A DNA stretch of 64,000 nucleotides, from positions 10,711 through 74,710 of the forward strand of contig JANQFE010000096.1 of NCBI GenBank assembly GCA_028278025.1. The letters run 5' to 3'. How positions within the stretch are numbered: the stretch's first letter is position 1; every line of letters begins with the position of its first letter. Of the stretch, positions 6,472-22,131 are shown one piece after another. Source of the stretch: Thermodesulfobacteriota bacterium. GTDB taxonomy: Bacteria > Desulfobacterota > WTBG01 > CAIYCZ01 > CAIRTM01. The notes under the pieces are model-generated. The model was not told where the DNA came from, searched no databases, and worked only from the letters and a program-made list of their open reading frames with translations. Made by a program: the position numbers and the translations under genes.

Positions 6472-6499
6472 TAGTCGTCTAATGAAAAATTTTATTTCT
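6472..6499 (-). promoter_or_regulatory. ECF-sigma-type promoter motif (coding orientation AGAAAT-N16-GACGACTAA) upstream of the M30-like peptidase gene
   Basis: Plus strand 'tagtcg' at 6472-6477 and 'atttct' at 6494-6499, with a 16-nt spacer. This is one of five copies of the same motif in the window. Confidence 0.55.
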
Positions 6500-6618: not shown

Positions 6619-7230
6619 TTAATTAAAAAAGATTTTTCCTAATGAAATTTTTTCTTGTGAGAAATTGAAAATATTGTACTCATCAACGGGAGATACATTA
6701 TTACTGAAATTGTTGATATCAAAAATATCTGAGCCACATGTATTGGTGCAATGACTTTCAAGGACTGGATCCCCTGAGTTTGTAAGTGTCAATAAAAGGG
6801 TTATATCTTCATCGCAATCATTAATAGGTATACAGCCCTCAAAATTAGCTATAAAGTCGCCGTCAATATAAAGTTTTATACTGCAAATATCATCAGAAAT
6901 TTCTCTGCAGTCTGAATATTCTCCTGATTCTGCAGCCCATGTTCCTTCAGATGTTTTCAGGGTTGCTTCCAGAGATCTACCATTGCTGTAGGAAAGATTA
7001 TTAAAAAAGTTTAGATTTTTCTCAGAACCTCCCGGCCCTTGTTGACCTTTTGCTGCCCCTTCGATAACAACACAATTGCGGTCTGAAGCATACGCCTGAG
7101 CTGCAAAAGGGTAACATGGTGAAAATATCAGACTTAAAATCAGTAGAAGGCTCATATACATAGTGTATGATATAACCATTTTATTATACTTGAAGATAAG
7201 CACTGTTAGTTTTAGAAAGTTTGCATTCAT
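6619..7230 (-). CDS. Small secreted Cys-rich protein (paralog of 7432..7980), function unknown
   Basis: ATG at 7230 with AGGAGA 6 nt upstream. Hydrophobic signal-like segment. Shares 'NFFNN(L/I)(S/A)YSxGxS(L/M)xA(T/K)L(K/E)TS(E/A)GTW(A/T)A(E/D)SGEYSxC' and a conserved Cys framework with the next gene. Confidence 0.6.
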   Translation of the reverse strand: MNANFLKLTVLIFKYNKMVISYTMYMSLLLILSLIFSPCYPFAAQAYASDRNCVVIEGAAKGQQGPGGSEKNLNFFNNLSYSNGRSLEATLKTSEGTWAAESGEYSDCREISDDICSIKLYIDGDFIANFEGCIPINDCDEDITLLLTLTNSGDPVLESHCTNTCGSDIFDINNFSNNVSPVDEYNIFNFSQEKISLGKIFFN

Positions 7231-7297: not shown

Positions 7298-7325
7298 TAG
7301 TCGCAGTTATGAAAAAAAAATTTCA
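7298..7325 (-). promoter_or_regulatory. ECF-type promoter motif (TGAAAT-N16-CTGCGACTAT) upstream of the 6619..7230 gene
   Basis: 'tagtcg' at 7298-7303 and 'atttca' at 7320-7325, about 60 nt upstream of the ATG. Confidence 0.5.
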
Positions 7326-7431: not shown

Positions 7432-7980
7432 TCAAAAAACAAGAGGTAGAAGAGGCTCCAGATCATCATTTTCACCTTCATCATTTAAATTACTAAAAAG
7501 ATCAATTTCAACTTCTATATTAATTATTGAAGCTGTATCAACTATATCAGCAAATCCTTCAAATGATTGTACATTCAAGATATCATTACCGCAATCATCA
7601 TGGCAGATCAACTTGAGAACAAAAGTGGAAGACCCCTCTAAAGTGAGCAGTAGTGTAGCATCAGTGCAATCTTCAATGTCAAGGCAATCATTAAAAGCAA
7701 ATTTATAATCACCATCAAAATAAACTCTAATGTCACATATTGAATTGTTTGAAACGGATTTGCAGCTCGAGTATTCGCCCGAATCTGCCGTCCAAGTGCC
7801 TGCAGAAGTTTCCAGTTTTGCAGACATGCTGTTTCCGCTGGAGTAGGCAATGTTATTAAAAAAATTAACACTATGAGGTGAACTGTTGCCACCCCCGCCT
7901 CCATCATCACCATCACAGCCAATCAAGGAGATTGATGCAATAATTGTTACAATATAAACAATACACTTAATTTTCTTCAT
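7432..7980 (-). CDS. Small Cys-rich lipoprotein (paralog of 6619..7230), function unknown
   Basis: ATG at 7980 with an AAAGGA SD. Lipobox 'SLIGC'. A Gly run follows, then the same conserved Cys pattern as the upstream paralog. Confidence 0.65.
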   Translation of the reverse strand: MKKIKCIVYIVTIIASISLIGCDGDDGGGGGNSSPHSVNFFNNIAYSSGNSMSAKLETSAGTWTADSGEYSSCKSVSNNSICDIRVYFDGDYKFAFNDCLDIEDCTDATLLLTLEGSSTFVLKLICHDDCGNDILNVQSFEGFADIVDTASIINIEVEIDLFSNLNDEGENDDLEPLLPLVF

Positions 7981-8103: not shown

Positions 8104-8131
8104 TAGTCGCAGGAAGTAAAAAATTATTCTA
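8104..8131 (-). promoter_or_regulatory. ECF-type promoter motif (TAGAAT-N16-CTGCGACTAA) upstream of the 7432..7980 gene
   Basis: 'tagtcg' at 8104-8109 and 'attcta' at 8126-8131. Confidence 0.55.
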
Positions 8132-8279: not shown

Positions 8280-9005
8280 TTATTTTACAGCTATAATCTG
8301 CGGTTGCATTTCATACTGCGAATCAAGGCGTGCAATGCTGGTGGCCTGTATCTGGGCCACACGTTCAAGCAGCTTACTGCTTACAAAGGACCTGTATGAA
8401 TACTCAACCTTATCGGAAAACTCAGTGGTTATACCGGGATCATGATTTTGTGAATAGACCGCGCCGGCGCCCAGTGCACAAAGCCCCCACCCCGGGGCAA
8501 ACCAGCCCAGCAGAGAGGTTGCCGCACCTCTGCTGAAACTGGTGTATCTGATTTCATATGGAGTAACAATATTAAACTGATTGATTAATCTGCCGGTTTT
8601 AGGGTCAAGCACACGCACATCAGTATCAACTTCTATATAATACTTATACCCGAGCCAGGCATGCGAAAAGACCAGAAAGCCGGGAAATGCGATAGGAATA
8701 TTTTGAAGGGATGATTTATACTTAACTGTTTTATTAAGATCGCATATATAATCAAGGTCCATCCCGGCAGATGTATGACAATCCTTTTTTACGGCCTCAA
8801 CTGAAGAAGAAAGGCTTGTCTCGCTAATAATGGACCTGAGCAGGCGGTCCTGGGTCGGTGCAAATCCAAGTTTAACTGTTTCTCTTTGATAGGCATTTAC
8901 GGGTGTAAAAACATCTCTGTTGGTAACTTTAAGCGGGTGAGTGCACCCCATTGCTGCAAAAATGCTGGTGGCCAGTAAGCATATAATTTTTGTTGCTGTT
9001 TTCAT
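8280..9005 (-). CDS. Lipoprotein of unknown function
   Basis: ATG at 9005 with an AAGGAG SD. Signal 'LLATSIFAAMGC' (lipobox). Confidence 0.6.
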   Translation of the reverse strand: MKTATKIICLLATSIFAAMGCTHPLKVTNRDVFTPVNAYQRETVKLGFAPTQDRLLRSIISETSLSSSVEAVKKDCHTSAGMDLDYICDLNKTVKYKSSLQNIPIAFPGFLVFSHAWLGYKYYIEVDTDVRVLDPKTGRLINQFNIVTPYEIRYTSFSRGAATSLLGWFAPGWGLCALGAGAVYSQNHDPGITTEFSDKVEYSYRSFVSSKLLERVAQIQATSIARLDSQYEMQPQIIAVK

Positions 9006-9146: not shown

Positions 9147-9174
9147 TAGTCGCAGGAGTCTGAAAAATATTCCC
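9147..9174 (-). promoter_or_regulatory. ECF-type promoter motif (GGGAAT-N16-CTGCGACTAA) upstream of the lipoprotein gene
   Basis: 'tagtcg' at 9147-9152 and 'attccc' at 9169-9174. Confidence 0.55.
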
Positions 9175-9276: not shown

Positions 9277-12108
9277 CTAATATGTCATAATGTCAGCAGA
9301 TTCAAAGATATTCTTAATGGTTTTTTTCTTTAGGTATGGTTTTACAAGTGAAAGATTATGTTTCAAAGTTGGAGGAGAGCTTTTTTGCAAGTCTATAAAA
9401 GCCTGCATCAAGCTGTTAACAAGTTCTTGGGGAAGTGCAACAGATTTATTCTTAAGGGCAGTATCTGTGATTAGAGCAGCAGAAGAAATTAATTCTAAAC
9501 AGCGCTGACTAAGTTTGGGATCTTTTTTTATAATATTCCAAACACCACAGGCTAAATCATAGTAGAGATCAACCAGCTGCCTTCCCGCTGGTGATTTTAC
9601 TAATATTTCATCACGAAACATCCTGAGTAGAATCAAATGATTATTCTGAGAAGTTTTTTCTACTAAATATTTAACAGGGCAGGTGCTGTTGTCCGGAGAT
9701 GTTCCGTTGTCATCATCATCATTTTCACCGACAACAGGCTTCATAATAATATCCTTATATACAACAGAACCGGGTGTGACCACTACAAGCGGAGTTGTTT
9801 CCTGGGTATAATATTTATGGTCTGATGACAGCATATGTTCACCGGCAGAGGCCAGGACTTCATAATAACCATCATGGTCACTGGTGTACTCGGGGCTGCC
9901 CTTGCAGGTAACGGTGGCATTATCGAGCAGATCTCCGGAGTCTGTTTTAACATATCCGTGAATTAAACCTATCAAACCTGATGAGGCCTCAAATAGCCCA
10001 GATGATGTACCTGCAAAGATAGGAGATAACGATAAAGGGGCACTTTTTTTAAGATGCAGGACTCGCGCAGATGTGCTGCCGGAAGCTGCTGAAGTATTTG
10101 CGTTTATGGTATGCAGGCTGTGCCCTGTAAGGCCTGCCTTGTTCCAGTACTCCCCGCCGTTGAGGCTCATATACACACCGCCAAAACTTACAAGGTCTTT
10201 ACGGTAGGCCATTGATAAACCTTGATAAACTATGTTGCTGTCTGATTTGTCGACACTAATGTCGGCTATGGTAAATTTCTCGGGCAATCCTTCAGATTTG
10301 TTTAACCAAGACGAACCACTGTCAGTGCTTTTGTAGATTCCGTTGCTGCGGCAGGCAGCATAAATTATATCAGGAGAAGAAGGTGCAAGTGCCAGCGCAT
10401 TTACGACTTCTTCATGTAAAGCTGTCTGCGACCACGTATCACCGCCATCAGTGCTTGCATACAGACCACCTGGCTTAACAGGAGAATAAACGTTCCCGGC
10501 ACCTGCAAAAATAATAGTTGAATCCTGTTGATTTACGGCAAGAACATTAATATCACAATCTGCCTGAAGCACTGTTTCAATTGTGCTTTTAGAGAAATTT
10601 TTTTGAGGGTCATCATCTATTCTTACAATCTGTCCTTTCGTGCCTGAAGAAAAACCAACCGCAGCTAAAACAATATCATTACCGGTTTCTTTCTCAATAA
10701 CGGCAATTGAATTTATGGAATTTGTATTAATAAGGTCCGGTAAATAGCGATACTGCCAGGTTGTGCCGCTGTCAGTGCTTTTTCCAAGTTTCCAAGCAAA
10801 ACCGGCATAGATAATATTTTTATCTTGAGGGTGAAAGCGAACAGCTTTACTAGAGTTTTTTTCAATGTGCTTCCATTCAGTATCAGTTTTAAGAAAAACA
10901 CCCGCAACAGTGCTCGCTACGATAGTTGAGGAATTATCAGGAGCAAAATCAGTTGAAAAAATTGCATTTGCCTTAATCCCGCTGTTTATAGTTTCCCAGG
11001 TTTCAGCGCCGTCGTTTGATTTAAAGATGCCGTTATGAATGCCGCCGGCATATATAGTATCTGGATTAAAGGGGTCTGATGCCAGCTTATAGAAATCATC
11101 AGGGGTTTCAAAAAAGTCCCAGGTAGCACCTTTATCAACGCTTTTAGCAATTGTTTTACCGGCAAGTCCAGCGAAGACGGTATCAGGTTCGGAGTTTGGA
11201 ATGCATAAAGTGTATGTAGGCTCGGCTAGCGATGTCCAGTACCAAGAACCGCTTTTAAGCGGACCGTCAACCTTGCGGGCTACACCTTTTGATCCACATG
11301 TAAAAAGAACAGATGGGTCAGAAGGATGAACTGCAATTGAGCCAAGCCAGCCAAACGAGCCAGAACCTTCATCTCCATAGGCTTCTGACCAGCTATGCCA
11401 TGTTGTACCGTTATCAGGGGAAACATACACAATGCCGTTTGTTTCAAACACACCCCATGATGAAGAAATTCCCCACAATTCACCAGGTTGTTGAGGGTTG
11501 ATGCCCAGGTCAATAATCGCATAAGGTGCCTCAAGGGACATTTCTTTGAAAAGAATAGACCCCTCAGTGCTTCGATAGAAATAACCGTAGCCATTATCAC
11601 TTGTTGGCCCGGTTCCAATATATATTGTATTACCCGTAGAATCGTGTGGATCAACTTCAACATTATGGCAAAAAAGCTTTGAAAATACTCCGTTAATGAA
11701 TCCGATATTCCATGTTTCACCATAATCGTAGCTGACATCAGTAAACATATTGGATGACACCCATATGGTTGACGGGTTGTTCGGATCAATATCAATGTCA
11801 AAAACTTCACGGTTGCGAAACCAGGTGTTGTTGTCGGTGGGGATTGTAATCCATGTCTGACCGCTGTCAGTGGTTCTGAACAGGCCGTCACCGTTCCAGC
11901 TGCCGGCATACAGTATCGAGCTGTCATCGGGATCAATAGCAAGGGATAGAATCTGACCGCCATACAGCCCCAAGTCTTCCCAATAAGAGTTTTCCTGTTG
12001 AGCATGTGCAGGGCAAAAAGTGCAAAATAGGATTAAAGGCACACAAAATGCAACATATGTGCAAAGTATTATAGAGTTGAGGGTGTTGAATATTTGATAT
12101 AATTTCAT
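9277..12108 (-). CDS. Secreted BNR/Asp-box repeat protein (sortilin/Ycf48-like beta-propeller repeats), followed by a carboxypeptidase-regulatory-like domain and the conserved C-terminal domain (CTD-B)
   Basis: The ORF track's 9277..12348 overlaps the upstream gene. The real start is ATG 12108 (MKLYQIF...CPAHAQQ signal). Eight or more S/TxDxGxTW motifs (TTDSGQTW, SYDYGETW, SPDNGTTW, VDKGATW, SNDGAETW, STDSGTTW, STDGGDTW, STDSGSSW). C-terminus 'LRMFRDEILVKSPAGRQLVDLYY'. Confidence 0.8.
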   Translation of the reverse strand: MKLYQIFNTLNSIILCTYVAFCVPLILFCTFCPAHAQQENSYWEDLGLYGGQILSLAIDPDDSSILYAGSWNGDGLFRTTDSGQTWITIPTDNNTWFRNREVFDIDIDPNNPSTIWVSSNMFTDVSYDYGETWNIGFINGVFSKLFCHNVEVDPHDSTGNTIYIGTGPTSDNGYGYFYRSTEGSILFKEMSLEAPYAIIDLGINPQQPGELWGISSSWGVFETNGIVYVSPDNGTTWHSWSEAYGDEGSGSFGWLGSIAVHPSDPSVLFTCGSKGVARKVDGPLKSGSWYWTSLAEPTYTLCIPNSEPDTVFAGLAGKTIAKSVDKGATWDFFETPDDFYKLASDPFNPDTIYAGGIHNGIFKSNDGAETWETINSGIKANAIFSTDFAPDNSSTIVASTVAGVFLKTDTEWKHIEKNSSKAVRFHPQDKNIIYAGFAWKLGKSTDSGTTWQYRYLPDLINTNSINSIAVIEKETGNDIVLAAVGFSSGTKGQIVRIDDDPQKNFSKSTIETVLQADCDINVLAVNQQDSTIIFAGAGNVYSPVKPGGLYASTDGGDTWSQTALHEEVVNALALAPSSPDIIYAACRSNGIYKSTDSGSSWLNKSEGLPEKFTIADISVDKSDSNIVYQGLSMAYRKDLVSFGGVYMSLNGGEYWNKAGLTGHSLHTINANTSAASGSTSARVLHLKKSAPLSLSPIFAGTSSGLFEASSGLIGLIHGYVKTDSGDLLDNATVTCKGSPEYTSDHDGYYEVLASAGEHMLSSDHKYYTQETTPLVVVTPGSVVYKDIIMKPVVGENDDDDNGTSPDNSTCPVKYLVEKTSQNNHLILLRMFRDEILVKSPAGRQLVDLYYDLACGVWNIIKKDPKLSQRCLELISSAALITDTALKNKSVALPQELVNSLMQAFIDLQKSSPPTLKHNLSLVKPYLKKKTIKNIFESADIMTY

Positions 12109-12142
12109 TTTAAAAAAAAATCTGCACATAGCGTTCATGCAC

Positions 12143-13495
12143 TTAAAAATGAATAATAACTGATGCCATAAACAGATGCTGGGTAACATCCGCATCAGTT
12201 GAAGGTATATCCAGAACCTCTCCCTCAACATCCTCTCCCCGGCGAAACTGGTAGGCAAAATCAAAAACAAGCCTTCCAGCTGAAAAACCTGTGCCCAGAG
12301 AAAATCCCCAGAAATCTTCAGGGCTTTTATTAGACGGCTCAGGATCATAAAAAAGTCCGCAACGCAACGGAATGATGGTTTTTACAAATATAAGGAGATA
12401 TTCTGCACCCAGTCTAATCTGGTGGGTTGCATTAACATGACTATCTTGTGAAGACTCACCGGTGATAGGACTTTTACGTTTGCCTTTACCGTTTTCAAGC
12501 ACAAAATGAGACCATTCAGTTCTGTGTACATCGAGTGAAAGAGTAAGTGTATCAGAAAAACGTAATGCAATCCCAAACCCATACGATAGGGGTATTTCAA
12601 GATCAACATCCTCGTCTATACGTGTTACCGAAGTGCTGGCAAAGCCTGTGGGCGGCTTCATTGTGATTTTTCCCACACGTTCATGCTGCAATTCACCGGT
12701 AAAGGGGGTCTTAATAACGCCGCCGATTGTTATATACCTGTTGATGTCCCATAAAAAACCAATATGCATGTTAAAACCGGAAAAGCCGTAATACCTGTCG
12801 CGGTCTTTAGATTTAAACTTTGTCGGTGCTCGTCCCGGACGAGATATTGCACCTGTAATAATAGTATCCGACTCCCAACCGTTACTCCAAAAAAGATTGT
12901 CAGTCCAAATATTGCATGTAAATCCAAAAGAAATATCGGGGGTAATTTGAATGGCATAAGCAGGAGATAGCGCACTCAGTTTGCCACGCTGGCGGAAATC
13001 CATATGCTGCTCGAAACGAACGGCAGGATTGTTAGACCGGGTAATAAAATCTGTTTCAATATTGCGATCAAATTCATAAAGGCGCTGGTAGTTAAGCGAA
13101 ACAATCATGTTGCGCTGAAACAGTTTGAAAGGATAAGCAATGCTCAAGTAATTAAGGTCTTTGCTGAGACTTCGCTGCAGTCCAGCCGCTTCAGGGTGAC
13201 TTTTTGAACTGTAATCCTCACGACGTCTGAAATAAGAAAACGCAAAAGAAATCTCGGGCTTACGCAGTTGAGTCAGACCGGCAGGATTCCATGAGGCTGC
13301 GGTGGCATCATCTGCAACAGCAATAAAGGCGCCCCCCATACCAACAGCGCGGGCACCTGAGCCAACAGGGTTGGGTGATGATGCTATAGTAATTTTTTGA
13401 GGTGCAGTTTGTGCCGAAACTGCAGTACACAATACGCCACCTGTAAGGCATAAAAAAATGAAATAAAAAAAACAGCGTAGAAGAAACAGTCTCAT
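12143..13495 (-). CDS. FadL/TodX/OMPP1-family outer-membrane beta-barrel (hydrophobic-substrate transporter family, which also contains T9SS PorV)
   Basis: Signal peptide. 'GMGGAFIAVADDATAASWNPAGL', the family-typical NPAGL N-terminal motif. C-terminal aromatic (..HF). The ATG overlaps the stop of the upstream gene (ATGA coupling). Confidence 0.8.
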   Translation of the reverse strand: MRLFLLRCFFYFIFLCLTGGVLCTAVSAQTAPQKITIASSPNPVGSGARAVGMGGAFIAVADDATAASWNPAGLTQLRKPEISFAFSYFRRREDYSSKSHPEAAGLQRSLSKDLNYLSIAYPFKLFQRNMIVSLNYQRLYEFDRNIETDFITRSNNPAVRFEQHMDFRQRGKLSALSPAYAIQITPDISFGFTCNIWTDNLFWSNGWESDTIITGAISRPGRAPTKFKSKDRDRYYGFSGFNMHIGFLWDINRYITIGGVIKTPFTGELQHERVGKITMKPPTGFASTSVTRIDEDVDLEIPLSYGFGIALRFSDTLTLSLDVHRTEWSHFVLENGKGKRKSPITGESSQDSHVNATHQIRLGAEYLLIFVKTIIPLRCGLFYDPEPSNKSPEDFWGFSLGTGFSAGRLVFDFAYQFRRGEDVEGEVLDIPSTDADVTQHLFMASVIIHF

Positions 13496-15618
13496 TTTGT
13501 GATTACTTTATCATTAATCTTAAGGTCTCGTTCTGTAAATTTTTCAAGAATCTTACCTTTAGCAAATTCTTTATTGACCTCTGTTGCAGTCACCAGCCCG
13601 AGAACCTCTGTTTTTCGGCCAAGTATTTTTTTTGTAACAGGATGTATGAGAGGGTCATTTTCTCTGAAGGCCAGAAGCTTCATGCCTGTGCATAAAGAAT
13701 GAGAGCTGCCAAGATCAATTGTTATGCTGCGTAATTTTTTACTGATTATGGTTCCTTCACACAAAGGAAAATGTTGTTTAAATTTAAGCGCAAGTCCTCC
13801 GATAGCATCACGAAGACCACGCAGATTTTCTCCTTCCCAGTATACGTCCTTTTCAGCCAGGATAAGGGATGTTTCCGTATCTACCATACGTGCAATAATT
13901 TCCACAGATTGTTCAGTTGTAAAAATGTCTCCAAGCAAAACTGTTTCAGATGCCATCAAACGGCCAAGACGAATAGCGGTCTGCTGATCAAAGATAGATT
14001 CCTGAGAGAGTTGCTGTTCAGTAAGCAATTGCTCCAATTGCTTTCTTTCAAGCACATTAAACCGTTTCTGCTGCACGAAGCATTTGGTTAGAAAAGATTC
14101 AATATAATCAGCCAGAGGCTCAGTATTTTGTTTGCTCTCTCTAAAAGGATAAATTGAAACAGTTAGGCGGGAGCCAACTTGTCGAATTGCAGGAATTTTT
14201 CTAATTACGGAAACAGCCTTGGTTATAGTTAAACCCTTGTGGTCAATAAGTTCAACAGAGACGGTATTTGCCTTTTCGTGCAGCTGTATAAGTTTGCTAA
14301 AGGAAAGTGTTTTCCTGGTGCTCTTGCCGAGCTCTCTTAAAAATGCCTTAAAAGATTTGTTCATGTCGGACTGTAGAAGTGATTGACCATTAACCCTTAT
14401 ATCTTTTATTCCCGCCGGAGTATAGACAAAGCCCTCAAGAAAAAGTGTATCTGATAAAACAGTTTGACCATCTTCACAGCCCTTCAGCTGAATATAAGGT
14501 TGTGACGGATGAGACGTTTGAGAATGGTAAGCTGTGAAATTACGTTCTGTTTGTCCAGAAGGTATTTTCATGACAGGAAGTGCTTCTCCAGAATATGCTA
14601 TAAGGGGTAATTTTGACGGAGGGCAGGAACTGGTTGACGAAACAACATGGATGAATCCGGTTGTGTGATTGCCGGCACGGTCTACTGCAACAAACTGAAT
14701 TTTATTCCCGCCTGATAATGTGTCCGACCTTACATAATAATTAATTTTTTCAAATTGCTTGTAACCAATCGGCAGATTGTTGTTGTTGATTGTAACTTTT
14801 GAGAGGGCTGAACTGTCAAAAACTGCACCACTGATATGGATTGTGTTATTGCCATCAGGCCTGGCTTCCAGAAAAACCAAAGGACCATTTCGATCAACCG
14901 TTACCTCAAACTTTACCGGAGGTGATTTTTTTTCAGTTAAATCCTCTGCCTGGACTGTAATAAGATTTTTTCCGTCATGAAGAATGATTTCTTTATGAAA
15001 TGTGACATCTTTTTGTGAAAGTTCAAGTGAAGTGGGGTTTCCGTTAACCAAGATTTTTGAAACATAGAAATCATCATGTGCAGAGCCGCTTACATTCATT
15101 GATAAGCTGCTGGTTACATAATCACGAGTGGGTGTAACCACTGCAAGGGTAGGTGGCATAGTATCTAAGCCTGTTTTTTTAAGCAGCTTTTGCCGGGCCT
15201 TATTAAGGTAAAATACAGCCCGGGCAGTTTTGAAATCTGAAAGAGATGCCTCAAGAGACTGAATGGCTTCTTCATGATTACCAAGATGATAACAGGCTAT
15301 TCCCAACTCACGTTTAGGGAAATAGTCTATAAAATGCATTCCATAAGTGCGGGCTCTGCGCTGATCCTTATCTCGCTGGGCAATTGCCTGTTTAAAATCT
15401 GATGAAGCGTCCTGCCAGAAGCCTCCCTGGCTGTATGAAAGACCGCGAAGGTAGTAATCGTTCCATTTTTCTTTAAAAAGGCCATCAACTGTACCGTAAA
15501 GCATGCCGTCCTTTTCGTAGACCGTGCTTTCTTTTACAGCACAGCTGTATTGCAGAAATGCAAAAATGACAGTGAAAACAAAAAAAATAGAATATATCTT
15601 TTTATATAACCAGCACAT
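13492..15618 (-). CDS. Lipoprotein with N-terminal TPR-like region, central Ig-like/beta region and C-terminal CsgG/HfaB-like domain
   Basis: ATG at 15618. 'FNVLERKQLEQLLTEQQL...AIRLGRLMASETVLLGDI' resembles the CsgG core LERxxLxxLLxE ... lG..lGAdylv.G. Confidence 0.55.
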   Translation of the reverse strand: MCWLYKKIYSIFFVFTVIFAFLQYSCAVKESTVYEKDGMLYGTVDGLFKEKWNDYYLRGLSYSQGGFWQDASSDFKQAIAQRDKDQRRARTYGMHFIDYFPKRELGIACYHLGNHEEAIQSLEASLSDFKTARAVFYLNKARQKLLKKTGLDTMPPTLAVVTPTRDYVTSSLSMNVSGSAHDDFYVSKILVNGNPTSLELSQKDVTFHKEIILHDGKNLITVQAEDLTEKKSPPVKFEVTVDRNGPLVFLEARPDGNNTIHISGAVFDSSALSKVTINNNNLPIGYKQFEKINYYVRSDTLSGGNKIQFVAVDRAGNHTTGFIHVVSSTSSCPPSKLPLIAYSGEALPVMKIPSGQTERNFTAYHSQTSHPSQPYIQLKGCEDGQTVLSDTLFLEGFVYTPAGIKDIRVNGQSLLQSDMNKSFKAFLRELGKSTRKTLSFSKLIQLHEKANTVSVELIDHKGLTITKAVSVIRKIPAIRQVGSRLTVSIYPFRESKQNTEPLADYIESFLTKCFVQQKRFNVLERKQLEQLLTEQQLSQESIFDQQTAIRLGRLMASETVLLGDIFTTEQSVEIIARMVDTETSLILAEKDVYWEGENLRGLRDAIGGLALKFKQHFPLCEGTIISKKLRSITIDLGSSHSLCTGMKLLAFRENDPLIHPVTKKILGRKTEVLGLVTATEVNKEFAKGKILEKFTERDLKINDKVITK

Positions 15619-15660
15619 TGCTTTTGTCTCAACCTTTAAAGCATCATGTAATAAACAAAA

Positions 15661-17778
15661 TTAATTAGATTCAACAACTCTCAGGCCTGGTACAATATTT
15701 TTTTTACTGCTAAGAATAGTCGCATACGAGTGATCCGGCATTGTTTGTACAGTCTTCAGCAATCCTATATGCTCCTTGTCATATGCAAGAGAAAGGTCAG
15801 ATTCGGCTAAGGAGTCATTTGTTGGAAGGATTGAGAAATCAGTACCCACTTGAACGCCACTGTCTGCACCGATGTTTAGCAGGACTTTTTCATTTTGCAA
15901 ACGGATGATTTTACCTTTAACTGGATAGAGGGACCTTGCTTCTTTTATAAGGGAGTTTGATAAATTATTAACAATAACCTTGGCGGCCCTGTTATCCAAC
16001 TCCTCATGCAATGCAATAATAATTTTAGAAGTGTCAGTTTCAAAAACACGTAAATTGACAGTAGTCAGATTTTTCAGCTTTACAATTTTTCCAACACCAA
16101 TGAGCCTGGCACCCATAAGCTTGCCGAGCATGGCAAGTGCCAAGGACTGATCGGCAATATCTGAGGTGCTGATCTGCAATTCTTTCAGCAGGGCGTTGAT
16201 TTTTTCACGCTCTACGAGTTGAACCCTGCCTGTGTTTATGAGTTCTCTGGAAAGGCTTGTGGTAAAGTATTGTTCAAGATTCTCACTGTCTTTAATGTTG
16301 CCAACACAGCTAAATCCAAGTATTGACATCGTCAAAGGGCTTGATGTCCATGAATCTACAGGATGTGATGAGCCCTTTATTTTTTTTTGTTTTTCATATT
16401 TTTCAGTAAGAGCTTTTAGAATAACTCGAATATTATCAGTAGAAGGTTTTACGGACTTAACGGCAGTTATAGAAGTTTTGTCAGTATGTTTTTGTTTAAG
16501 AAAAGGAAGTTTATCATGAGAGAGAAAAAGCAGAATAAATATTGCAGTTAAAAAAATGATGACAGAAGAAATTGTAAAGTTAAAGGTTTTGCGGTCAAGA
16601 GGAAGTGATCTTGTTGATCCTGTTGCAAGGGCCTCTTTATGCGTAGACATTTCTTCATAGGGCAGTTTTTTGTCTGCAGAAGAAAACTGGTTGTCATCAA
16701 GATAATTGAAAGATGGATGGCCATACAGAACATAGCTTGCCCAGATAATATTGCTCTCACCGTAAATGGAAATAAGATGCTCGCGAGACTTTTTTACAGC
16801 CTCTCCAATACAACAACCTTGGATAAGTTTTTGATAAAAACAAACAGAAAATTCACGGCTTGCATCATCCAGGACTTCCCAGAAGGTGCCGATGTAATGC
16901 AGTACTCCTGACACTAGAAATGAATGCGCAAGGCCGAAGATGTTAGTTTCAAAATCTTCATTAAGTTTCCATTCAAGTGTCTGGCCTGACTGGCAGGCAT
17001 TGGCAAAGATAAGATTAGGGAAAGGCCTGTTGCGCGACATGTGCATGATATCATGTGAAGTGAATTTACCGTTTTCCAGCAGCCAGCCGCTTTGTGAAGG
17101 ATCAGCAGCAACATAATCAGCATGGCCTGCATAGTGAATAATATCATAGTTGCGTATGTAGTCCCTTAATGTGGAGTTGTTGACTCTTCGATTAAAAAGA
17201 TCTGCGTGTATTAGTGCGGGGCTTTTATCCAGTTCAGATCTAATAAGGCTACCTTCAATGTAAGCATTTTCAAGATCGCCACTGGGGTCACACAAAATTA
17301 GAATTTTTAAGGGCGACGAGATCTTTTTGGGTTTTGGCTTGACGATGTTTTGATGGGTGCGCACAACCCTGCCTACATTAAATTTCCTGCAAAGGAAATC
17401 GCTGCCGTCATACAAAAGTTCCCAGGGAATATGGACCAGTCCGTCATCAATATTAATGATAAGGTTTTCAGAAGCAGTTTTGGAAAGCTCTTTTTGAACA
17501 TTGTGGGGCAATAAATCTTCAAAAAGCGAGAAACCGGTATTCTTTAATTGAGCAAGATTTTCTCCGGCAAGTGCGCCTCTCAGATTAGCATTGTTAAGCA
17601 GTCGGGTAAATTCTTTGCATTTATTAGTTATAAGATATGGATCAATGGTTTGCTCTGAAATATGTCTTAGCGTATCCTCTTCTATGTTTGTCTTAGTAAA
17701 GATACCAACCTTCAGACGGGTATGCTCTCGTGATAATTCAATTTCAATTGTTTTTTGCTGGTGGTCGTGTGTGCTCAT
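15661..17778 (-). CDS. CHAT-domain (caspase-like, clan CD) peptidase fused through a TM helix to a C-terminal CsgG-like domain
   Basis: ATG at 17778. 'HYAGHADYV' and 'FANACQSGQ' are the His/Cys dyad motifs of CHAT/caspase-HetF. TM helix 'VIIFLTAIFILLFLS'. C-terminus 'VQLVEREKINALLKELQ...LAMLGKLMGARLIGVGKI' (CsgG-like). Confidence 0.7.
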   Translation of the reverse strand: MSTHDHQQKTIEIELSREHTRLKVGIFTKTNIEEDTLRHISEQTIDPYLITNKCKEFTRLLNNANLRGALAGENLAQLKNTGFSLFEDLLPHNVQKELSKTASENLIINIDDGLVHIPWELLYDGSDFLCRKFNVGRVVRTHQNIVKPKPKKISSPLKILILCDPSGDLENAYIEGSLIRSELDKSPALIHADLFNRRVNNSTLRDYIRNYDIIHYAGHADYVAADPSQSGWLLENGKFTSHDIMHMSRNRPFPNLIFANACQSGQTLEWKLNEDFETNIFGLAHSFLVSGVLHYIGTFWEVLDDASREFSVCFYQKLIQGCCIGEAVKKSREHLISIYGESNIIWASYVLYGHPSFNYLDDNQFSSADKKLPYEEMSTHKEALATGSTRSLPLDRKTFNFTISSVIIFLTAIFILLFLSHDKLPFLKQKHTDKTSITAVKSVKPSTDNIRVILKALTEKYEKQKKIKGSSHPVDSWTSSPLTMSILGFSCVGNIKDSENLEQYFTTSLSRELINTGRVQLVEREKINALLKELQISTSDIADQSLALAMLGKLMGARLIGVGKIVKLKNLTTVNLRVFETDTSKIIIALHEELDNRAAKVIVNNLSNSLIKEARSLYPVKGKIIRLQNEKVLLNIGADSGVQVGTDFSILPTNDSLAESDLSLAYDKEHIGLLKTVQTMPDHSYATILSSKKNIVPGLRVVESN

Positions 17779-17835
17779 TATATACTGTTTCTTAATAAAG
17801 TTGTCTGATTAGTTTATGCAGCTAATGCAGAGATG

Positions 17836-18705
17836 CTATTGAATCAGAAATTGAACTCTTTTGATTTCCCTGCGGTTTCTGGATAATACTATATGATAAG
17901 TTCCAGGAGATATATCCTTAAACAGCGCCTTACCATCTTCTAGGAAGAGCGACACTATTTCGAGGGTATCATGAAACAAAGAAACTCTGATATTATCAAG
18001 AGAAGAGCGTAGGCCTGATGTTGAGAGAAAAACCAACACTTCAAATTTTTGTTTCTCAAGTTCTTCTATTTCAATTTTCAGCTCAATTCCCCCGGACCTG
18101 TCCATGATAATGGATATGTTTTCCTGGAGTTTTCTTTTACCCTTTCGAACCATTATAAGCTGCGGTTCAGATTGAGGAATAAAAAGTTCGGCAACAAAAT
18201 CCCTGCATTTTTGGAGAATGGATTTAGTAAGGTGTATCATTTGTGTGCTTAATGAAGTGTCAGTGCTTTTGCTAAGAGGATATTCCCGTGAGACTGCTTT
18301 AAGAAAACTATGCAGCCCATCTACTGGTTCCTTATGAAAAGTCATTTTTTGCATATCCTGCTCAAGATCAAGAAGCTGTGAGAAATATCTGTTACAGTCA
18401 GTACAACTATTAAGGTGTTGTTTAATTTCTTTTAGGCCCTTATCAGATAGCATTTCTCTCTGGTTAGCATACGCGACAAGAAGATCAGGGTCAATACAAC
18501 TGGAATCTGCATATTTTTCTGCAAGAACTGTCCTGTGTGTTGATAATGCGGCATCAATTTCACGCAGTTTTATAATCTCATGTCTGCATGCGGAGCACCC
18601 ATCAATATGTGCTGCAAGCGTTTTCATATCATTGCCGTTTAACTGCTTTTCAAGATAAAGCAGTAATTTGTCATTGAGCTCAGGTTTATCACATTGTGCT
18701 TTCAC
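17836..18705 (-). CDS. Anti-sigma factor, zinc-finger (ZAS, HxxxCxxC) type
   Basis: GTG start at 18705 overlaps the sigma stop (GTGA). 'HIDGCSACRHE'. Second Cys pair 'CTDC'. Position is immediately downstream of the ECF sigma gene. Confidence 0.65.
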   Translation of the reverse strand: MKAQCDKPELNDKLLLYLEKQLNGNDMKTLAAHIDGCSACRHEIIKLREIDAALSTHRTVLAEKYADSSCIDPDLLVAYANQREMLSDKGLKEIKQHLNSCTDCNRYFSQLLDLEQDMQKMTFHKEPVDGLHSFLKAVSREYPLSKSTDTSLSTQMIHLTKSILQKCRDFVAELFIPQSEPQLIMVRKGKRKLQENISIIMDRSGGIELKIEIEELEKQKFEVLVFLSTSGLRSSLDNIRVSLFHDTLEIVSLFLEDGKALFKDISPGTYHIVLSRNRREIKRVQFLIQ

Positions 18706-19304
18706 AAAAGATCTCCCTTGTTTTGTTCACAAAGGTTTCTCAACTCCAACAAACAGCGTTTCAGTCGTGACGCCACAGTGCCCATAGGAATATTAAGGGT
18801 AGATACAATTTTGTCATATGAAAAGTTATCAAAATATTTTAGTTTTATGATCTCACGGCACTTTGTTCCTATATTATCAAGAGCTGATGTCAGCAGCTCA
18901 CGTGTCTCGGTGCATTCAAGATGGTCATAAAAAGAAGAGTGCGTGTCTTCCAGTACCAAGCGGGGGGAGCCATCTTCATCTGCAGCATCAATTGACAAAC
19001 AGTTTTTTTCCCCCTCACGTTTTTGGGCTGTGATTTTTCTGATTTCTGAAACACATTTGTTTTTAGCGATATTTGAAGCAAAGGTTTCAAGAGAACAGTC
19101 AAATTTGAACGATTTTAATGAAGTGACAAGACCGGTAAATACTTCCTGTATTATTTCCTCTGCATCCTCAAAGTCAAAATTCCATTTTTTCCAATGGGCA
19201 ACGAACCGGATAGTATTATAGGTTCGTTTATAGAGGATGGACCAGGCTTCTTCGCTGCCGGTCAGGCATTGCGTAACAAGTTCTTTATCATCCTGCACTG
19301 CCAA
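18702..19304 (-). CDS. ECF-family RNA polymerase sigma-70 factor
   Basis: Sigma-70 region 2 ('EAWSILYKRTYNTIRFVAHW...EDAEEIIQEVF') and region 4 ('YFDNFSYDKIVSTLNIPMGTVASRLKRCLLELR'). The ORF track starts at 19460. A GAGGAGG SD 8 nt upstream of TTG 19304 gives an ECF-typical length of about 200 aa. Confidence 0.85.
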   Translation of the reverse strand: MAVQDDKELVTQCLTGSEEAWSILYKRTYNTIRFVAHWKKWNFDFEDAEEIIQEVFTGLVTSLKSFKFDCSLETFASNIAKNKCVSEIRKITAQKREGEKNCLSIDAADEDGSPRLVLEDTHSSFYDHLECTETRELLTSALDNIGTKCREIIKLKYFDNFSYDKIVSTLNIPMGTVASRLKRCLLELRNLCEQNKGDLL

Positions 19305-19876
19305 GAATGTTTCCTCCTCAAAGATATATATAACCAGATAACAAAAAGCTTTTGTATCTATAGATAAACATAAGCAATGCCTTTTCTCTGGAAGGTAGAT
19401 ACAGTAAACTGTAATATGATTGTGGTTTTGACGTCTGTTTGCTCTAATATTTTTTCTCATTTTTACATAAATTGCAATAAATAAACAGGATTAGAATTAT
19501 TTTTATTATAATCTATAATTAATTAGCTATTGTTAAAATTTTATTTCCCTTTTGGTGCAATGCTTAAAAGACATAATTAGAATACAATGAAAAATGGAGT
19601 TTCTCTAATATCTATTGTCGCAATCTGAAATAATTTGTTTCTAAAAAATGATTTATTTATTCAATCAACATAACAATCATTTTTCGCTCAGTTGATGCTG
19701 TTGGAAACAAGACCACATTTAATGCAGATGATTTCAAATGAAATGAGAAGTTTTATCAAGTGAGGTTTTTTCCTCAGGTGATAGCGAAGAACTAAAATTT
19801 TATTTAAAATATGATGGTTTAGAAAATTTTGCATAATGTTCACCTTTAGTGTTGGGTTGTTACTATTCAATGAATT

Positions 19877-19904
19877 TAGTCGCAAGAAGAATGAAATTAT
19901 TCTG
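19877..19904 (-). promoter_or_regulatory. ECF-type promoter motif (CAGAAT-N16-TTGCGACTAA) upstream of the sigma/anti-sigma operon; candidate autoregulatory promoter
   Basis: 'tagtcg' at 19877-19882 and 'attctg' at 19899-19904. It lies about 570 nt upstream of the proposed sigma start. Confidence 0.5.
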
Positions 19905-20169
19905 CAGTTTTTTTATTAATAGCTGACTTATGAGGAAAATAGACAGACGTACTAAATAAGAATGAAAAAAATGCTTACAAAGAACAAAGGAAAAGAAGAT
20001 GCTGCCTGGTGGTAATTGCTATGAGCATAATTTTAAAGGAATTGTAGTGAACAAATACATTACAGAGCAGCAAAGCAGGTGCACGCAAGAAAATGTAAAA
20101 AAGGGTAATAAAGATATTCATGCAGACAACGATACGAAGAAGGGATTATTATAATGGCGATACTCTTTG

Positions 20170-22131
20170 TCAAACATCTGAGGGCGTGATCAATTCCCAT
20201 GTAACCATAAATTCATTCAGGTAAGATATCTGATCATTACTTCTGTAGCGGACGGCTATAACTTTTTCGCCGTTCAGCCATACCCGCCCATTGGAAACTG
20301 TTTGCTTCAGCGGATCATTAGGTTTGCCAAGATGCCCGGGTGTAATATAGGGGCTGATCCAAATTCCCGAAATCGCATTGTCAGGAACGATTCTATGGGT
20401 AACCACCTTGCCATTGCAGAGTTTGTAATCGATAAACATTTCACGTTCTTTATATAATAGTCGTTTCACCCGGCCAAAGAAAGTTCTTTGGAAAAACGTT
20501 TTTGCACGCAAGATTGTTTCCTGGTGCTCTGGAATAGTAATCCACTCTTCCCAGGCAGCGGTGATCGTATCGGTTTCCTCGGGCATTGAGAACAGGGGGG
20601 ACGCGCTTTTTGATAACAGCATTACATGGTTAGCTGCGAGGTGTAGGTAATAATTGCGTATGATCTCAAATATTGTGTTGGGTTCATCACTGAGCAGATA
20701 CCTATTGTCTATGCTAATGAAATTATTTTTATTGTTTTTAACGTTCCACAGGATAAAGTCAGGAGCGGAGGTGCTCTTTATAAAGTCAGCGTTTTTGGCA
20801 TCAAGCCAGGGTGTATACGCAATATAGGATTGAAAAACCGGCCGAGGATGCCAGTTTAAACTATTTGCAAAAACGTACGCTGTTTCCCAGGGATAAATAT
20901 CAACAGGGGCTTGTGAGATTGTATTGAGAATTTTTTTGTCGATAACATAGTTCTGCAAATATTTTTTTGAATAATTGTTAATATTTTTTTCAAAATTTCT
21001 TATTTTGAAGATTGTAGAAAAATTATTATACCGTTTTGAATAAAAAGATTTTTTAATATGTCTCATAAGAAAATCTTTGGTGTGAAAATATGGAAGACTG
21101 TTGATCGTTATAGTAACCAGTATCATAGAGATGATCAGCAGTAAAAGGCAGTACATTTTGTGTTTTATACTGTCGGCATATATAAACAAAATGGTGAGCA
21201 TTATAAAAATTAAAACCAGGAAATATGGAGCATGACCTACCCTGGAAAATGAGTATTTAAACCAAACAGCCATTGGTAATAAAAAAATGAAGCTAAACTT
21301 TTTAACCCGAGAGGGTTGTGACAGGATAAATATACAAATCAACAATAGTGCTATGACAAAAGGTATCCAGTTCATGGACGCACTTTTACTCATTGCACTG
21401 GAATTGCCGGAAGAAAGCTCAAGGGTTGCTATAACAAAATTATAGAGTGTTATAATGCTTCCAACGGCAATACTCCAGAGTACAACTAAGCAAAGCAAAG
21501 CGGTTCCCGCTGTTGACAAAAGCATTTTTATTTTTTTGGTAGAGGGATACCTTATAAGAATATAAGATATTAAAAATGCCAGGGAAAGGATTGTATATGC
21601 AGGTTTTACCAGGAACATAAAGGCTGATAAAAAGGCAGCAATAAAGAGAAAATGCGCTAGGTTCCATTTGTCTGCGATACATATAAGCAAAACTATAAGG
21701 GCAACGGTAATTTCACCGGTACCGAAATAGACAAGTACATTACCGAGAAAAAATGAAATTATCAGTACAGCTGTTTGTAAAAAACGGTTTGTATTGGATA
21801 TTGTTGAAAAAAGTATCTGAAAATAGCACAGTATAAAACCAAGCAGGATCAGGGTATAAAAAACAGTACCGAATAAGATATTGTGGCCGACCGGCTGCGG
21901 TACCAATAAAAAACCTAGAGGACCGTATGTAAAAAAAATATCTTTACCGACAAAAATATTATTATCAAAAAAATAATTAAGGGCTGCCTCGTAAGATGGA
22001 TCAAGGCCGGGTATGATCGGTCTTCCGATGAGATGAAAACTAAACATGAAAAACAGACCGGAGATTGCCAGGGGATAAATAATGTGCTTGTTTGGAGGAA
22101 TATCGATATTTTTTGAAACGGTCGGCGACAT
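20170..22131 (-). CDS. Polytopic integral membrane protein (more than 10 TM helices) with C-terminal soluble domain, function unknown (possibly envelope glycan-related)
   Basis: Long hydrophobic segments throughout the N-terminal 350 aa. Adjacent to an LtaS-like sulfatase-family gene. Confidence 0.55.
   Translation of the reverse strand: MSPTVSKNIDIPPNKHIIYPLAISGLFFMFSFHLIGRPIIPGLDPSYEAALNYFFDNNIFVGKDIFFTYGPLGFLLVPQPVGHNILFGTVFYTLILLGFILCYFQILFSTISNTNRFLQTAVLIISFFLGNVLVYFGTGEITVALIVLLICIADKWNLAHFLFIAAFLSAFMFLVKPAYTILSLAFLISYILIRYPSTKKIKMLLSTAGTALLCLVVLWSIAVGSIITLYNFVIATLELSSGNSSAMSKSASMNWIPFVIALLLICIFILSQPSRVKKFSFIFLLPMAVWFKYSFSRVGHAPYFLVLIFIMLTILFIYADSIKHKMYCLLLLIISMILVTITINSLPYFHTKDFLMRHIKKSFYSKRYNNFSTIFKIRNFEKNINNYSKKYLQNYVIDKKILNTISQAPVDIYPWETAYVFANSLNWHPRPVFQSYIAYTPWLDAKNADFIKSTSAPDFILWNVKNNKNNFISIDNRYLLSDEPNTIFEIIRNYYLHLAANHVMLLSKSASPLFSMPEETDTITAAWEEWITIPEHQETILRAKTFFQRTFFGRVKRLLYKEREMFIDYKLCNGKVVTHRIVPDNAISGIWISPYITPGHLGKPNDPLKQTVSNGRVWLNGEKVIAVRYRSNDQISYLNEFMVTWELITPSDV

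Follow-up and report, generated by a model that had tools for sequence, protein, structure and literature searches.

The window analyzed here, i.e., the whole stretch of 64,000 nucleotides from contig JANQFE010000096.1 of a Thermodesulfobacteriota bacterium, carries on its minus strand, between positions 9277 and 19460, six collinear open reading frames (ORFs). Their predicted products are a sigma factor of the extracytoplasmic function (ECF) type, an anti-sigma-like protein, a protein with a caspase-like CHAT domain, a tetratricopeptide repeat (TPR) lipoprotein, a FadL-like outer-membrane barrel, and a secreted BNR propeller protein. We propose that the first five may form a trans-envelope signaling module controlling the sigma factor. 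All six ORFs were confirmed by the ORF list and by domain profiles:

18702 to 19304, minus strand: ECF sigma gene, 200 amino acids (aa) from a TTG, with the ORF extending to an ATG at 19460 (TIGR02937, Sigma70_r2, Sigma70_r4_2)
17836 to 18705, minus strand: zinc-finger (ZAS-type) anti-sigma-like protein (zf-HC2)
15661 to 17778, minus strand: CHAT protein, predicted to pass the inner membrane once, with the CHAT domain, one transmembrane (TM) segment, a TolB-N/LpoB-like domain, and a small β-barrel
13492 to 15618, minus strand: TPR/Ig lipoprotein (TPR, Glucodextran_B, CsgG, FlgO, and LpoB matches)
12143 to 13495, minus strand: FadL/TodX-family outer-membrane barrel with a signal peptide (Toluene_X)
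9277 to 12138, minus strand: BNR/sortilin-type propeller protein, secreted, with a signal peptide (Sortilin-Vps10)

A first-pass annotation had described positions 9277 to 19904 as a sigma-controlled operon for a new envelope sorting or processing system. The tight spacing of the six genes that it noted was confirmed, as the sigma and anti-sigma genes overlap in a GTGA, the lipoprotein and barrel genes overlap in an ATGA, and the remaining junctions are gaps of 57 nt, 42 nt, and 4 to 34 nt. The composition it gave also held, both by Pfam and NCBIfam scores and by recurrence: the same gene set was found again on dozens of unrelated contigs, and for this reason we consider the cluster to be more than a chance arrangement. 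The true start of the sigma gene is most likely the TTG at 19304, which is preceded by a putative ribosome-binding site (GAGGAGG); a start at the ATG at 19460 would add 52 residues that are poorly conserved in relatives. For the BNR gene, translation starts either at 12138 (MNAM..) or at 12108 (MKLY..); the listed 1,023-aa ORF reaching to 12348 overlaps the FadL-like gene, and 12348 is not the true start. A scan for hydrophobic segments detected none in the sigma and anti-sigma proteins and one in the CHAT protein, and the other three proteins possess N-terminal signal peptides. Generic sigma-70 promoter and terminator scans of the window stayed at chance level.

A scan for homologous loci, using one genome per species, yielded at least 572 confirmed loci. 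They are distributed over Thermodesulfobacteriota, Nitrospirota, Nitrospinota (Nitrospinia), and unclassified metagenome-assembled genomes (MAGs) and include one in the complete genome of Desulfonema magnum 4be13 (L064). For synteny counts, the six-frame ORFs of 80 loci were searched with the window proteins. The anti-sigma gene was located directly upstream of the CHAT gene in 59 of the 71 loci with sufficient upstream sequence, and the sigma gene was present within 1.3 kb upstream in 50 of 60. Among the 33 loci flanked by at least 8 kb on both sides, the lipoprotein was found in 29 and the barrel in 23; the BNR protein, previously counted as a component of the system, was a neighbor in only 6. 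The lipoprotein/barrel pair lies either upstream or downstream of the sigma/anti-sigma/CHAT trio, the order being variable, and all six close relatives retain the core of five genes. Judged from these comparisons, the conserved unit is composed of five genes (sigma, anti-sigma, CHAT protein, lipoprotein, and barrel), and the sixth is variable: its position is taken by the BNR protein in the window, in L002 by a protein of 571 aa with a Beta_propel protein after it, and in L086 by an NHL propeller that contains a C13 peptidase domain, with nothing comparable in L084 and L085. The 653-aa membrane protein encoded upstream of the cluster and the small downstream genes were not conserved near the module elsewhere and hence do not belong to the core. 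In three loci (L061, L065, and L070), the trio is kept, the periplasmic part of the CHAT protein is a different one, and the lipoprotein and barrel genes are absent; in two of these loci the exchanged part consists of DUF4384 or of DUF4384 plus trypsin, and in L070 it has no Pfam match. Because the trio survives such swaps and losses, it can be regarded as the stable heart of the module and the envelope parts as an exchangeable sensor. In L065 (9977 to 13024), where DUF4384 and a trypsin-like domain replace the TolB-N-like domain, a protease would be present on each side of the membrane. Repeatedly, a single MAG was found to hold a pair of modules located on separate contigs (L003 and L028, L005 and L017, L006 and L008, L021 and L039, and L046 and L050).

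The sigma factor matched TIGR02937 with 88.8 bits (cut-off, 42.9), Sigma70_r2 with 33.2, Sigma70_r4_2 with 31.5, and Sigma70_ECF with 23.8 bits, i.e., it possesses regions 2 and 4 only and scores above the family threshold, as expected for an ECF (group IV) sigma factor. The product of the adjacent gene matched zf-HC2 (PF13490) with 32.7 bits (cut-off, 22.2), and the N-terminal H-x3-C-x2-C motif together with the GTGA coupling of its gene to the sigma gene corresponds to ZAS-type anti-sigma factors. Residues C70, H97, C101, and C104 are conserved across 45 homologues, the zinc site being complete (C/H/C/C); the match to RsrA is weak (33.6 bits; cut-off, 62.5). The family core consists of a Cys plus H-x3-C-x2-C (CP..HLxxCxxC), a variable linker, and a C-terminal β-rich domain related to CarboxypepD_reg, the repeats of which it matches. 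The window protein contains two H-x3-C-x2-C motifs (aa 33 to 40 and 97 to 104), of which the second alone is present in most family members; the additional motif at the N terminus is shared by close relatives and also matches the N termini of longer zf-HC2 proteins of 440 to 640 aa. Since no TM or hydrophobic segment was detected in the window protein or in any of the 45 homologues, the anti-sigma factor appears to be soluble. One 411-aa protein (P0327) combines the zinc motif and the β domain with ECF sigma regions 2 and 4 and represents either a natural fusion or merged gene calls. Inhibition of the sigma factor by the window protein is thus putative, the gene coupling and the P0327 fusion pointing to it indirectly.

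The CHAT protein is divided by its only hydrophobic segment into two parts:

16720 to 17529, minus strand: CHAT (caspase-like, clan CD) domain, aa 84 to 353 (PF12770, 102.8 bits)
16516 to 16584, minus strand: sole TM segment, aa ~399 to 421 (the only hydrophobic 19-mer)
15670 to 16335, minus strand: predicted periplasmic α/β domain and small β-barrel (the 'CsgG' part), aa ~482 to 703

Residues H215, H219, and C262 are invariant among 15 CHAT homologues; His219 and Cys262 form a putative catalytic dyad, and the domain is predicted to be protease-competent and, at the sequence level, a member of clan CD. The N terminus of the protein is hydrophilic and carries no signal peptide, and all 72 relatives that have both domains show the same arrangement, with one TM segment between the CHAT and the C-terminal domain and no signal peptide. 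The closest nonidentical homologue is 53% identical, and hundreds more exist. Most of the best homologues listed are proteins of 900 to 1,200 aa in which a class III nucleotide cyclase (Guanylate_cyc) is followed by CHAT, the TM segment, TPRs, and a CsgG/LpoB-like domain. Because the N-terminal cyclase of these relatives needs cytoplasmic ATP or GTP, the CHAT domain should likewise be cytoplasmic. The missing signal peptide, the position of CHAT before the TM segment, the cyclase fusions, and the fold of the C-terminal part all predict that CHAT faces the cytoplasm. The protein had been proposed to act as a surface sortase resembling PorU of the type IX secretion system (T9SS); a CHAT domain that lacks a signal peptide, precedes the sole TM segment, and is fused to cyclases in relatives does not agree with this proposal, as a cytoplasmic CHAT cannot reach an exported protein tail or act like PorU.

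The 'CsgG' matches on which a secretion channel had been postulated are weak and partial, reaching 24.1 bits for the CHAT protein (profile positions 18 to 101 of 210) and 34.1 bits for the lipoprotein (33 to 104 of 210). An AlphaFold2 model of aa 427 to 705 of the CHAT protein (pLDDT, 77.5) features a compact α/β domain, a helix, and a small β-barrel. In a fold comparison, this model scored highest with FlgT (10.7; 174 residues), followed by the TolB N-domain (10.0), HpaA (9.4), PelC (9.2), LpoB (8.8), CsgG (8.8; 115 of 206 residues), the periplasmic domain of CadC (8.6), and VtrA (7.3). According to the model, the 'CsgG' parts are domains of approximately 115 residues with the TolB-N/LpoB/PelC/FlgT fold and without channel hairpins. 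In full-length CsgG, two β-hairpins form the 36-stranded outer-membrane pore, and since only the first half of the profile is covered and neither hairpin is present, a channel function is not supported. The C-terminal regions of the CHAT protein and of the lipoprotein are paralogous, with cross-matches of E = 1e-12 to 1e-16. One of the two copies is therefore found on a lipoprotein, together with TPRs and Ig-like domains (Glucodextran_B, 56.4 bits), and the other is tethered to the inner membrane by a TM segment. The assignment as a lipoprotein is sound, as most homologues possess a canonical L-[AS]-G-C lipobox that aligns with Cys26 of the window protein. When the sequences of the periplasmic domain, lipoprotein, and barrel were searched against the PDB, nothing significant was returned, and only the fold comparison was informative. 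A small gene with a PF05635 (23S_rRNA_IVP) match lies between the CHAT and lipoprotein genes in L001 (12198 to 12581) and L084 (4111 to 4527).

When the regions upstream of the sigma gene were aligned with those of seven close relatives, a block of the form GGAAC/GAAAT-N15-GCGACTAT was found in the window and in five of them (L001, L002, L083, L084, and L085). The resulting consensus, GRAAY-N15-GCGACTA, has the features of an autoregulated ECF promoter, i.e., a GGAAC-like -35 and a CGTC/CGAC-like -10 element approximately 16 nt apart. This predicted promoter supports the earlier suggestion that the cluster is under ECF sigma control. Within the window, the motif was found at the following sites, which were also ranked with a position weight matrix (PWM) built from the sites of the five relatives only:

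19879 to 19903, minus strand: distal copy, AGAAT-N15-GCGACTA (9/10 match; PWM rank 4)
19617 to 19641, minus strand: proximal copy, GAAAC-N15-GCGACAA, ~310 nt before the sigma TTG (exact 10/10 core match; PWM rank 3)
9149 to 9173, minus strand: GGAAT-N15-GCGACTA, intergenic, upstream of 8280 to 9005 (10/10)
8106 to 8130, minus strand: copy upstream of 7432 to 7980 (9/10; PWM rank 2, score 16.1)
7300 to 7324, minus strand: copy upstream of 6619 to 7230 (10/10; PWM rank 1, score 27.8)
6474 to 6498, minus strand: GAAAT-N15-ACGACTA, upstream of 3007 to 6423 (9/10; PWM rank 6)

The minus strand contains three exact matches to GRAAY-N15-GCGAC (at 19641, 9173, and 7324), all in intergenic regions, compared to 0.33 expected at the fixed 15-nt spacing; with loose spacing, there are four against about 1.3 expected, the fourth being on the plus strand in a coding region (24614). 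The four best PWM sites of the window (7326, 8132, 19643, and 19905; 6500 ranks sixth) are all located in minus-strand intergenic regions of the cluster, although such stretches make up only ~1.4% of the scanned positions, and the top score of 27.8 compares with a maximum of 16.7 over 30 shuffles. The 11 sites with 9/10 matches in the whole window do not exceed chance level (9.5 expected), and the case for the motif is consequently built on the 10/10 matches, the independent PWM, and the positions. Additional motif sites were found just after the module in relatives (L002, 17909; L084, 8399 and 8877; L085, 8038). The sigma factor probably drives its own operon and four downstream units encoding secreted proteins or lipoproteins:

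8280 to 9005, minus strand: 241-aa predicted lipoprotein (lipobox AAMGC) of the putative regulon, without family match and not conserved near the module elsewhere
7432 to 7980, minus strand: 182-aa Cys-rich lipoprotein, a 46% identical paralogue of the product of 6619 to 7230
6619 to 7230, minus strand: 203-aa secreted Cys-rich protein
3007 to 6423, minus strand: 1,138-aa secreted protein with Ig and PKD domains, an HExxH region, Cys-rich repeats, and a C-terminal tail at 3010 to 3420 (Pfam and a hidden Markov model [HMM] of the tail)

The BNR gene has no promoter motif of its own and is therefore probably part of the sigma operon. The boundaries 9277 to 19904 given before are thus too narrow: the functional unit probably extends from about 19905 to 3007 and includes four further units with the same promoter motif, and the former end coordinate of 19904 falls on the distal motif copy (19903 to 19879). 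The leader between the proximal motif and the sigma start (19305 to 19617) spans ~310 nt; it is long in relatives as well and is conserved among the closest ones, and Rfam gave no match either in this leader or in the rest of the window. A weak motif copy at 47603 to 47627 (9/10, with GAGAC for GCGAC), which may be due to chance, is intergenic and precedes the genes of an M6 peptidase and a tail protein.

The barrel protein matched Toluene_X (PF03349) with 61.5 bits (cut-off, 29.7) over aa 48 to 415 (profile positions 24 to 379 of 421), which places it in the FadL/TodX family. Its suggested role as PorV, the FadL-superfamily barrel of the T9SS, is not supported, as it stays below every PorV cut-off (PorV_fam NF033709, 60.4 against 90 bits; NF033710, 27.2 against 250; NF033711, 24.6 against 220) as well as that of BamG (62.5 against 250), and PorV in the PDB was matched with E = 0.056 only. 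The BNR protein matched Sortilin-Vps10/BNR with 80.8 bits and the F510_1955 glycosylhydrolase family with 135.6 bits (cut-off, 175); it also contains a CarboxypepD_reg-like domain and ends in a tail domain:

9280 to 9690, minus strand: C-terminal domain of the BNR protein (C..LRxFRDxxL..G..YY) with a helical extension and no TM segment

This shared C-terminal domain is real, as claimed before: an HMM made from the four copies in the window finds exactly the four window proteins concerned (3007 to 6465, 9277 to 12348, 31767 to 33245, and 43544 to 45754). One of them (31767 to 33245) exceeds the cut-off of 40 for the NCBIfam model NF041770 (CFI-box-CTERM) with 49.8 bits, and the others score 36.5, 32.6, and 31.0, the last value being that of the tail of 3007 to 6423. 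The window tails align with canonical CFIATAAYGS...LREFRD...YY proteins and share with them the invariant C, R-x-F-R-D, L, G, and YY residues, from which the tail is classified by sequence as a divergent member of this catalogued family. Because it is predicted to be all-helical and belongs to the CFI-box-CTERM family, it does not qualify as a T9SS-type sorting tag, for which a β-sandwich of ~80 residues matching the T9SS C-terminal domain models would be expected. Nor is the tail confined to loci with the module: family members occur in a Woesearchaeota archaeon, in a Planctomycetota bacterium, and as stand-alone proteins of ~100 aa, and all four sampled CFI-box contigs were without a CHAT, FadL, or CsgG-like neighbor within 10 kb. 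A degenerate DNA pattern for the tail retrieved 19 metagenome stretches, mostly by chance; no CHAT, lipoprotein, or FadL-like gene was found nearby, and one stretch contained an unrelated sigma-factor match. In metagenome proteins from L091 (1271 to 1342), L094 (2159 to 2230), and L104 (4426 to 4497), CFLTTA.. or CFITTAA.. precedes LRxFRD and YY with a spacing unlike that of the CFI-box; these proteins may represent sister families.

The connection between CFI-box BNR proteins and the FadL-like barrel is nevertheless recurrent. BNR proteins ending in canonical or short CFI-box motifs adjoin the FadL-like gene in about nine loci, and in six loci the BNR gene is immediately upstream of the barrel gene. 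In L025, L055, and L062, the BNR part, the CFI-box, a TM helix, a basic loop, and the barrel with its signal peptide are encoded in one stop-free frame (16912 to 20967, 1707 to 5678, and 912 to 5579, respectively, in three unrelated MAGs), and signal peptidase could split such fusions into two proteins. In L002, a non-BNR protein with a window-type tail follows the barrel gene.

Taken together, we read the five-gene unit as a trans-envelope signaling module controlling an ECF sigma factor, in which CHAT would cleave the anti-sigma factor, and assign this reading a probability of about 0.5. The topology and the signaling character of the module are highly probable, and for the cleavage step, which is proposed by analogy, the odds are even or slightly lower. 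FadL-like barrels are a family of channels for hydrophobic molecules, and a signal would enter the periplasm through or at the barrel of the module. Sensing of the cue would fall to the lipoprotein and to the CHAT protein's periplasmic domain, probably by contact of their paralogous domains, and the oligomeric state of the CHAT protein would change across the membrane, leading to activation of CHAT. The cytoplasmic output domains seen in the CHAT-protein family are a caspase-type protease and a class III cyclase, and enzymes of both types are activated by dimerization. Active CHAT would cut the soluble anti-sigma factor encoded directly upstream, and the freed sigma factor would transcribe its own operon and the neighboring genes for secreted proteins. 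Propeller proteins next to the barrel, such as the BNR protein, are regarded as variable accessories or outputs rather than as core components. A signaling function is favored because the periplasmic fold matches the sensor domains of CadC and VtrA as well as periplasmic FlgT, TolB-N, PelC, and LpoB, because swapping of sensor domains, as in L061, L065, and L070, is typical of signaling proteins, because several modules per MAG are expected for signaling systems, and because the anti-sigma gene so constantly precedes the CHAT gene (59 of 71 loci).

Several points weigh against this interpretation. The cut of the anti-sigma factor by CHAT is deduced by analogy with craspase and Csx30; no conserved linker motif stood out in the anti-sigma alignment, a word-indexed protein search with this alignment yielded 3 proteins only, and a full-library search revealed no anti-sigma/CHAT fusion among 144 clusters. 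Given its complete Cys/His zinc site, the anti-sigma factor could respond to redox changes alone. The charges flanking the TM segment are balanced, and the positive-inside rule therefore gives no support for the topology. Transcription of the six genes as one unit is deduced from their spacing only, the promoter motif was derived from close relatives only, and a crude dyad search for the promoter over 25 diverse loci performed no better than shuffles.

An explanation without proteolysis of the anti-sigma factor by CHAT would be that an outer-membrane complex for uptake, export, or anchoring is assembled from the lipoprotein and the barrel, optionally joined by the propeller protein, in the manner of PelC and PelB or of pairs of a surface lipoprotein and a barrel, and that the sigma factor, the anti-sigma factor, and CHAT only regulate its expression. 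Release of the anti-sigma factor would then depend on redox reactions of the zinc site or on a protease other than CHAT, and CHAT would act on some other target in the cytoplasm. The folds matching the AlphaFold2 model (PelC, LpoB, CsgG, TraT, and FlgT) often form outer-membrane rings, the combination of TPRs, a PelC-like domain, and a barrel mirrors PelBC, in which PelC rings lie under the PelB barrel, the BNR-barrel fusions argue for a physical complex, and the complete C/H/C/C site and the weak RsrA match would fit release by redox. However, the module is not accompanied by any conserved polymerase, glycosyltransferase, or transporter gene in the relatives examined, and adjacency of the anti-sigma and CHAT genes is the most constant feature of the family, outlasting the loss of lipoprotein and barrel. 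The periplasmic domain that the CHAT protein shares with the lipoprotein would moreover be expected for the relay of a signal and not for an unrelated regulator. We therefore consider a mere outer-membrane complex unlikely.

Still less probable is the envelope sorting machine of the first-pass annotation, in which the FadL-like barrel would present tail-tagged cargo, CHAT would process it, and CsgG-like channels would export it. CHAT is predicted to lie on the cytoplasmic side, where it could not reach an exported tail, the channel half is missing from the 'CsgG' domains, which FlgT and TolB-N match better, the barrel stays below the PorV cut-offs, and the tail is helical instead of a T9SS-type β-sandwich. 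Some observations do favor sorting, i.e., the adjacency of CFI-box BNR proteins to the barrel gene in about nine loci, their single-frame fusions in L025, L055, and L062, the tailed protein after the barrel gene of L002, the resemblance of short CFI-box forms (motif, TM segment, and basic residues) to tripartite sorting signals, and the sigma-dependent promoter motif of the second tail protein (3007 to 6423). Against this, CFI-box tails occur in an archaeon, in Planctomycetota, as stand-alone proteins of ~100 aa, and on four of four sampled contigs without the module within 10 kb, a BNR neighbor was present in only 6 of 33 fully flanked loci, and two of the four tail proteins of the window are encoded 12 to 24 kb away without a clear promoter motif. 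A weaker, reduced version, in which the barrel merely anchors or receives CFI-box proteins, is kept alive by the BNR-barrel fusions. Least credible to us is a role in antiphage defense or conflict, with CHAT being triggered when the envelope is damaged or a phage attaches and thereby setting off a sigma-dependent defense program or abortive infection. The characterized CHAT/sigma partnerships that we found are all located in defense loci, the genes downstream of the core vary between relatives, and genomes may hold several copies; yet PADLOC returned no significant match for the seven proteins searched (best, BovA with 16.7 bits and CARF with 14 bits), no CRISPR, CBASS, nuclease, or phage genes were seen in the window or in the related loci examined, and the genes of the putative regulon encode hydrolase-like secreted proteins and small Cys-rich ones.

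To return to the signaling module, we tentatively describe the CHAT protein as a bacterial 'receptor caspase,' in which a periplasmic TolB-N-fold domain, responding to the barrel and lipoprotein as outer-membrane sensor, would switch on a cytoplasmic CHAT protease that cuts a soluble anti-sigma factor. This might constitute a widespread, previously undescribed route of ECF activation and the first CHAT/anti-sigma pathway outside CRISPR and CBASS loci, a suggestion that we put forward with the same reserve. ECF sigma factors are among the main means of envelope sensing in bacteria, and a membrane-anchored caspase-type protease relaying an envelope signal to a soluble anti-sigma factor would, if true, be a new mechanism and give bacterial CHAT proteases a physiological role other than defense. 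It would also account for the large family of unannotated 'CHAT domain-containing' and 'class 3 adenylate cyclase/CHAT/TPR' proteins of sulfate reducers, Nitrospirota, and Nitrospinota. The module is open to experiments, as it is present in the cultured Desulfonema magnum 4be13 with its complete genome. Independently, the uncharacterized CFI-box-CTERM domain gains, from its occurrence in BNR proteins fused to the FadL-like barrel, the first contextual clue to its function that we found.

Elsewhere in the window, a minus-strand region at 39667 to 47256 harbors genes for secreted peptidases, namely, an S41 peptidase with PKD, two M43/reprolysin-like proteins, an HExxH tail protein, and an M6-like protein. 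The HExxH protein (43544 to 45754) has a CFI-box-like tail and is homologous to the catalytic part of 3007 to 6465. A 213-aa secreted protein (29914 to 30555) contains a striking repeat rich in Tyr, Pro, Trp, and Asp (YYPYWYDPFYMGYYPYYPYHYPYYYGYYPYWYDPYYWYY); a charged stretch rich in Arg, Glu, and Gln comes next, and the tail is rich in Gly and Arg. Two polytopic membrane proteins of 653 and 664 aa (20170 to 22131 and 34804 to 36798) have no Pfam or NCBIfam match, and the former is encoded directly upstream of the sigma promoter region.

Among known systems, protease-driven release of a sigma factor has a close precedent in the type III-E CRISPR craspase, in which the TPR-CHAT protein Csx29 cleaves Csx30, an inhibitor of CASP-sigma (PMC10028731). 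The likeness lies in a cytoplasmic CHAT protease that cuts a soluble inhibitor of an ECF-type sigma factor, which then activates genes of its own locus, a course of events belonging to craspase and inferred for the window. In contrast, craspase is triggered by target RNA on Cas7-11 and Csx30 is not a zf-HC2 protein, whereas the window CHAT protein is predicted to be membrane anchored with a periplasmic domain, has no CRISPR genes nearby, and would cleave its target only by inference. CalpL/CalpT/CalpS and the SAVED-CHAT cascade are likewise precedents for proteases acting on sigma inhibitors (bioRxiv 10.1101/2023.06.23.546230). DdvA/DdvS of Myxococcus xanthus provides a further CHAT/ECF sigma precedent and brings together, within a single signaling pathway across the inner membrane, an ECF sigma factor, an anti-sigma domain that binds zinc, and a CHAT domain; its TPR-CHAT part, however, is periplasmic and belongs to the anti-sigma factor itself, the release of which was proposed to require RseP (PMC11506125). 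In the window, CHAT is predicted to be cytoplasmic and resides on a separate protein, and the anti-sigma factor has no TM helix. In the RseA and Fec systems, serine and metalloproteases cut anti-sigma factors that are themselves membrane spanning. In RseA/DegS/RseP and FecA/FecR/FecI, an envelope signal leads to proteolytic removal of the anti-sigma factor, and in Fec an outer-membrane barrel senses first (summarized in PMC8999054). By comparison, in the window the protease would span the membrane and the anti-sigma factor would be soluble, and the barrel is of the FadL type rather than TonB dependent.

Like the T9SS, the locus combines a barrel of the FadL superfamily and a peptidase of clan CD with secreted proteins that have a C-terminal domain in common; it differs in that the peptidase is predicted to be on the cytoplasmic and hence wrong side of the inner membrane, the barrel does not reach the PorV thresholds, and the tail is a helical CFI-box-CTERM domain. 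No other T9SS genes were seen in the window, in agreement with the earlier statement that canonical ones are missing. Within the TolB-N/LpoB/PelC/CsgG/FlgT family, the window domains are without the channel-forming TM hairpins of CsgG, and in one case the domain forms the extracytoplasmic part of a putative protease anchored in the inner membrane. Receptor-type class III adenylate cyclases with periplasmic TolB-like and TPR parts are a known architecture, although the literature search did not return it. Most relatives of the CHAT protein are such cyclases with CHAT inserted between the cyclase and the TM helix, whereas in the window protein the cyclase and the periplasmic TPR parts are missing, having either been lost or never been present. 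Compared with canonical CFI-box domains, the window tails show CP or CG variants in place of CFIATAA and no terminal TM helix, and most add ~70 residues of helices. ECF54, the only ECF group reported with CHAT neighbors, was considered as the same system and rejected, being actinobacterial and without an anti-sigma factor. CHAT, FadL, and CsgG all go unmentioned in the main text of the ECF reclassification paper. The literature searched contained no description of the gene set, of the CFI-box, or of an ECF sigma factor associated with a CHAT protease that is anchored in the membrane and faces the cytoplasm, which upholds the first impression that no system of this composition had been described. 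Protease-driven release of a sigma factor is thus known in principle, and the present arrangement appears to be new.

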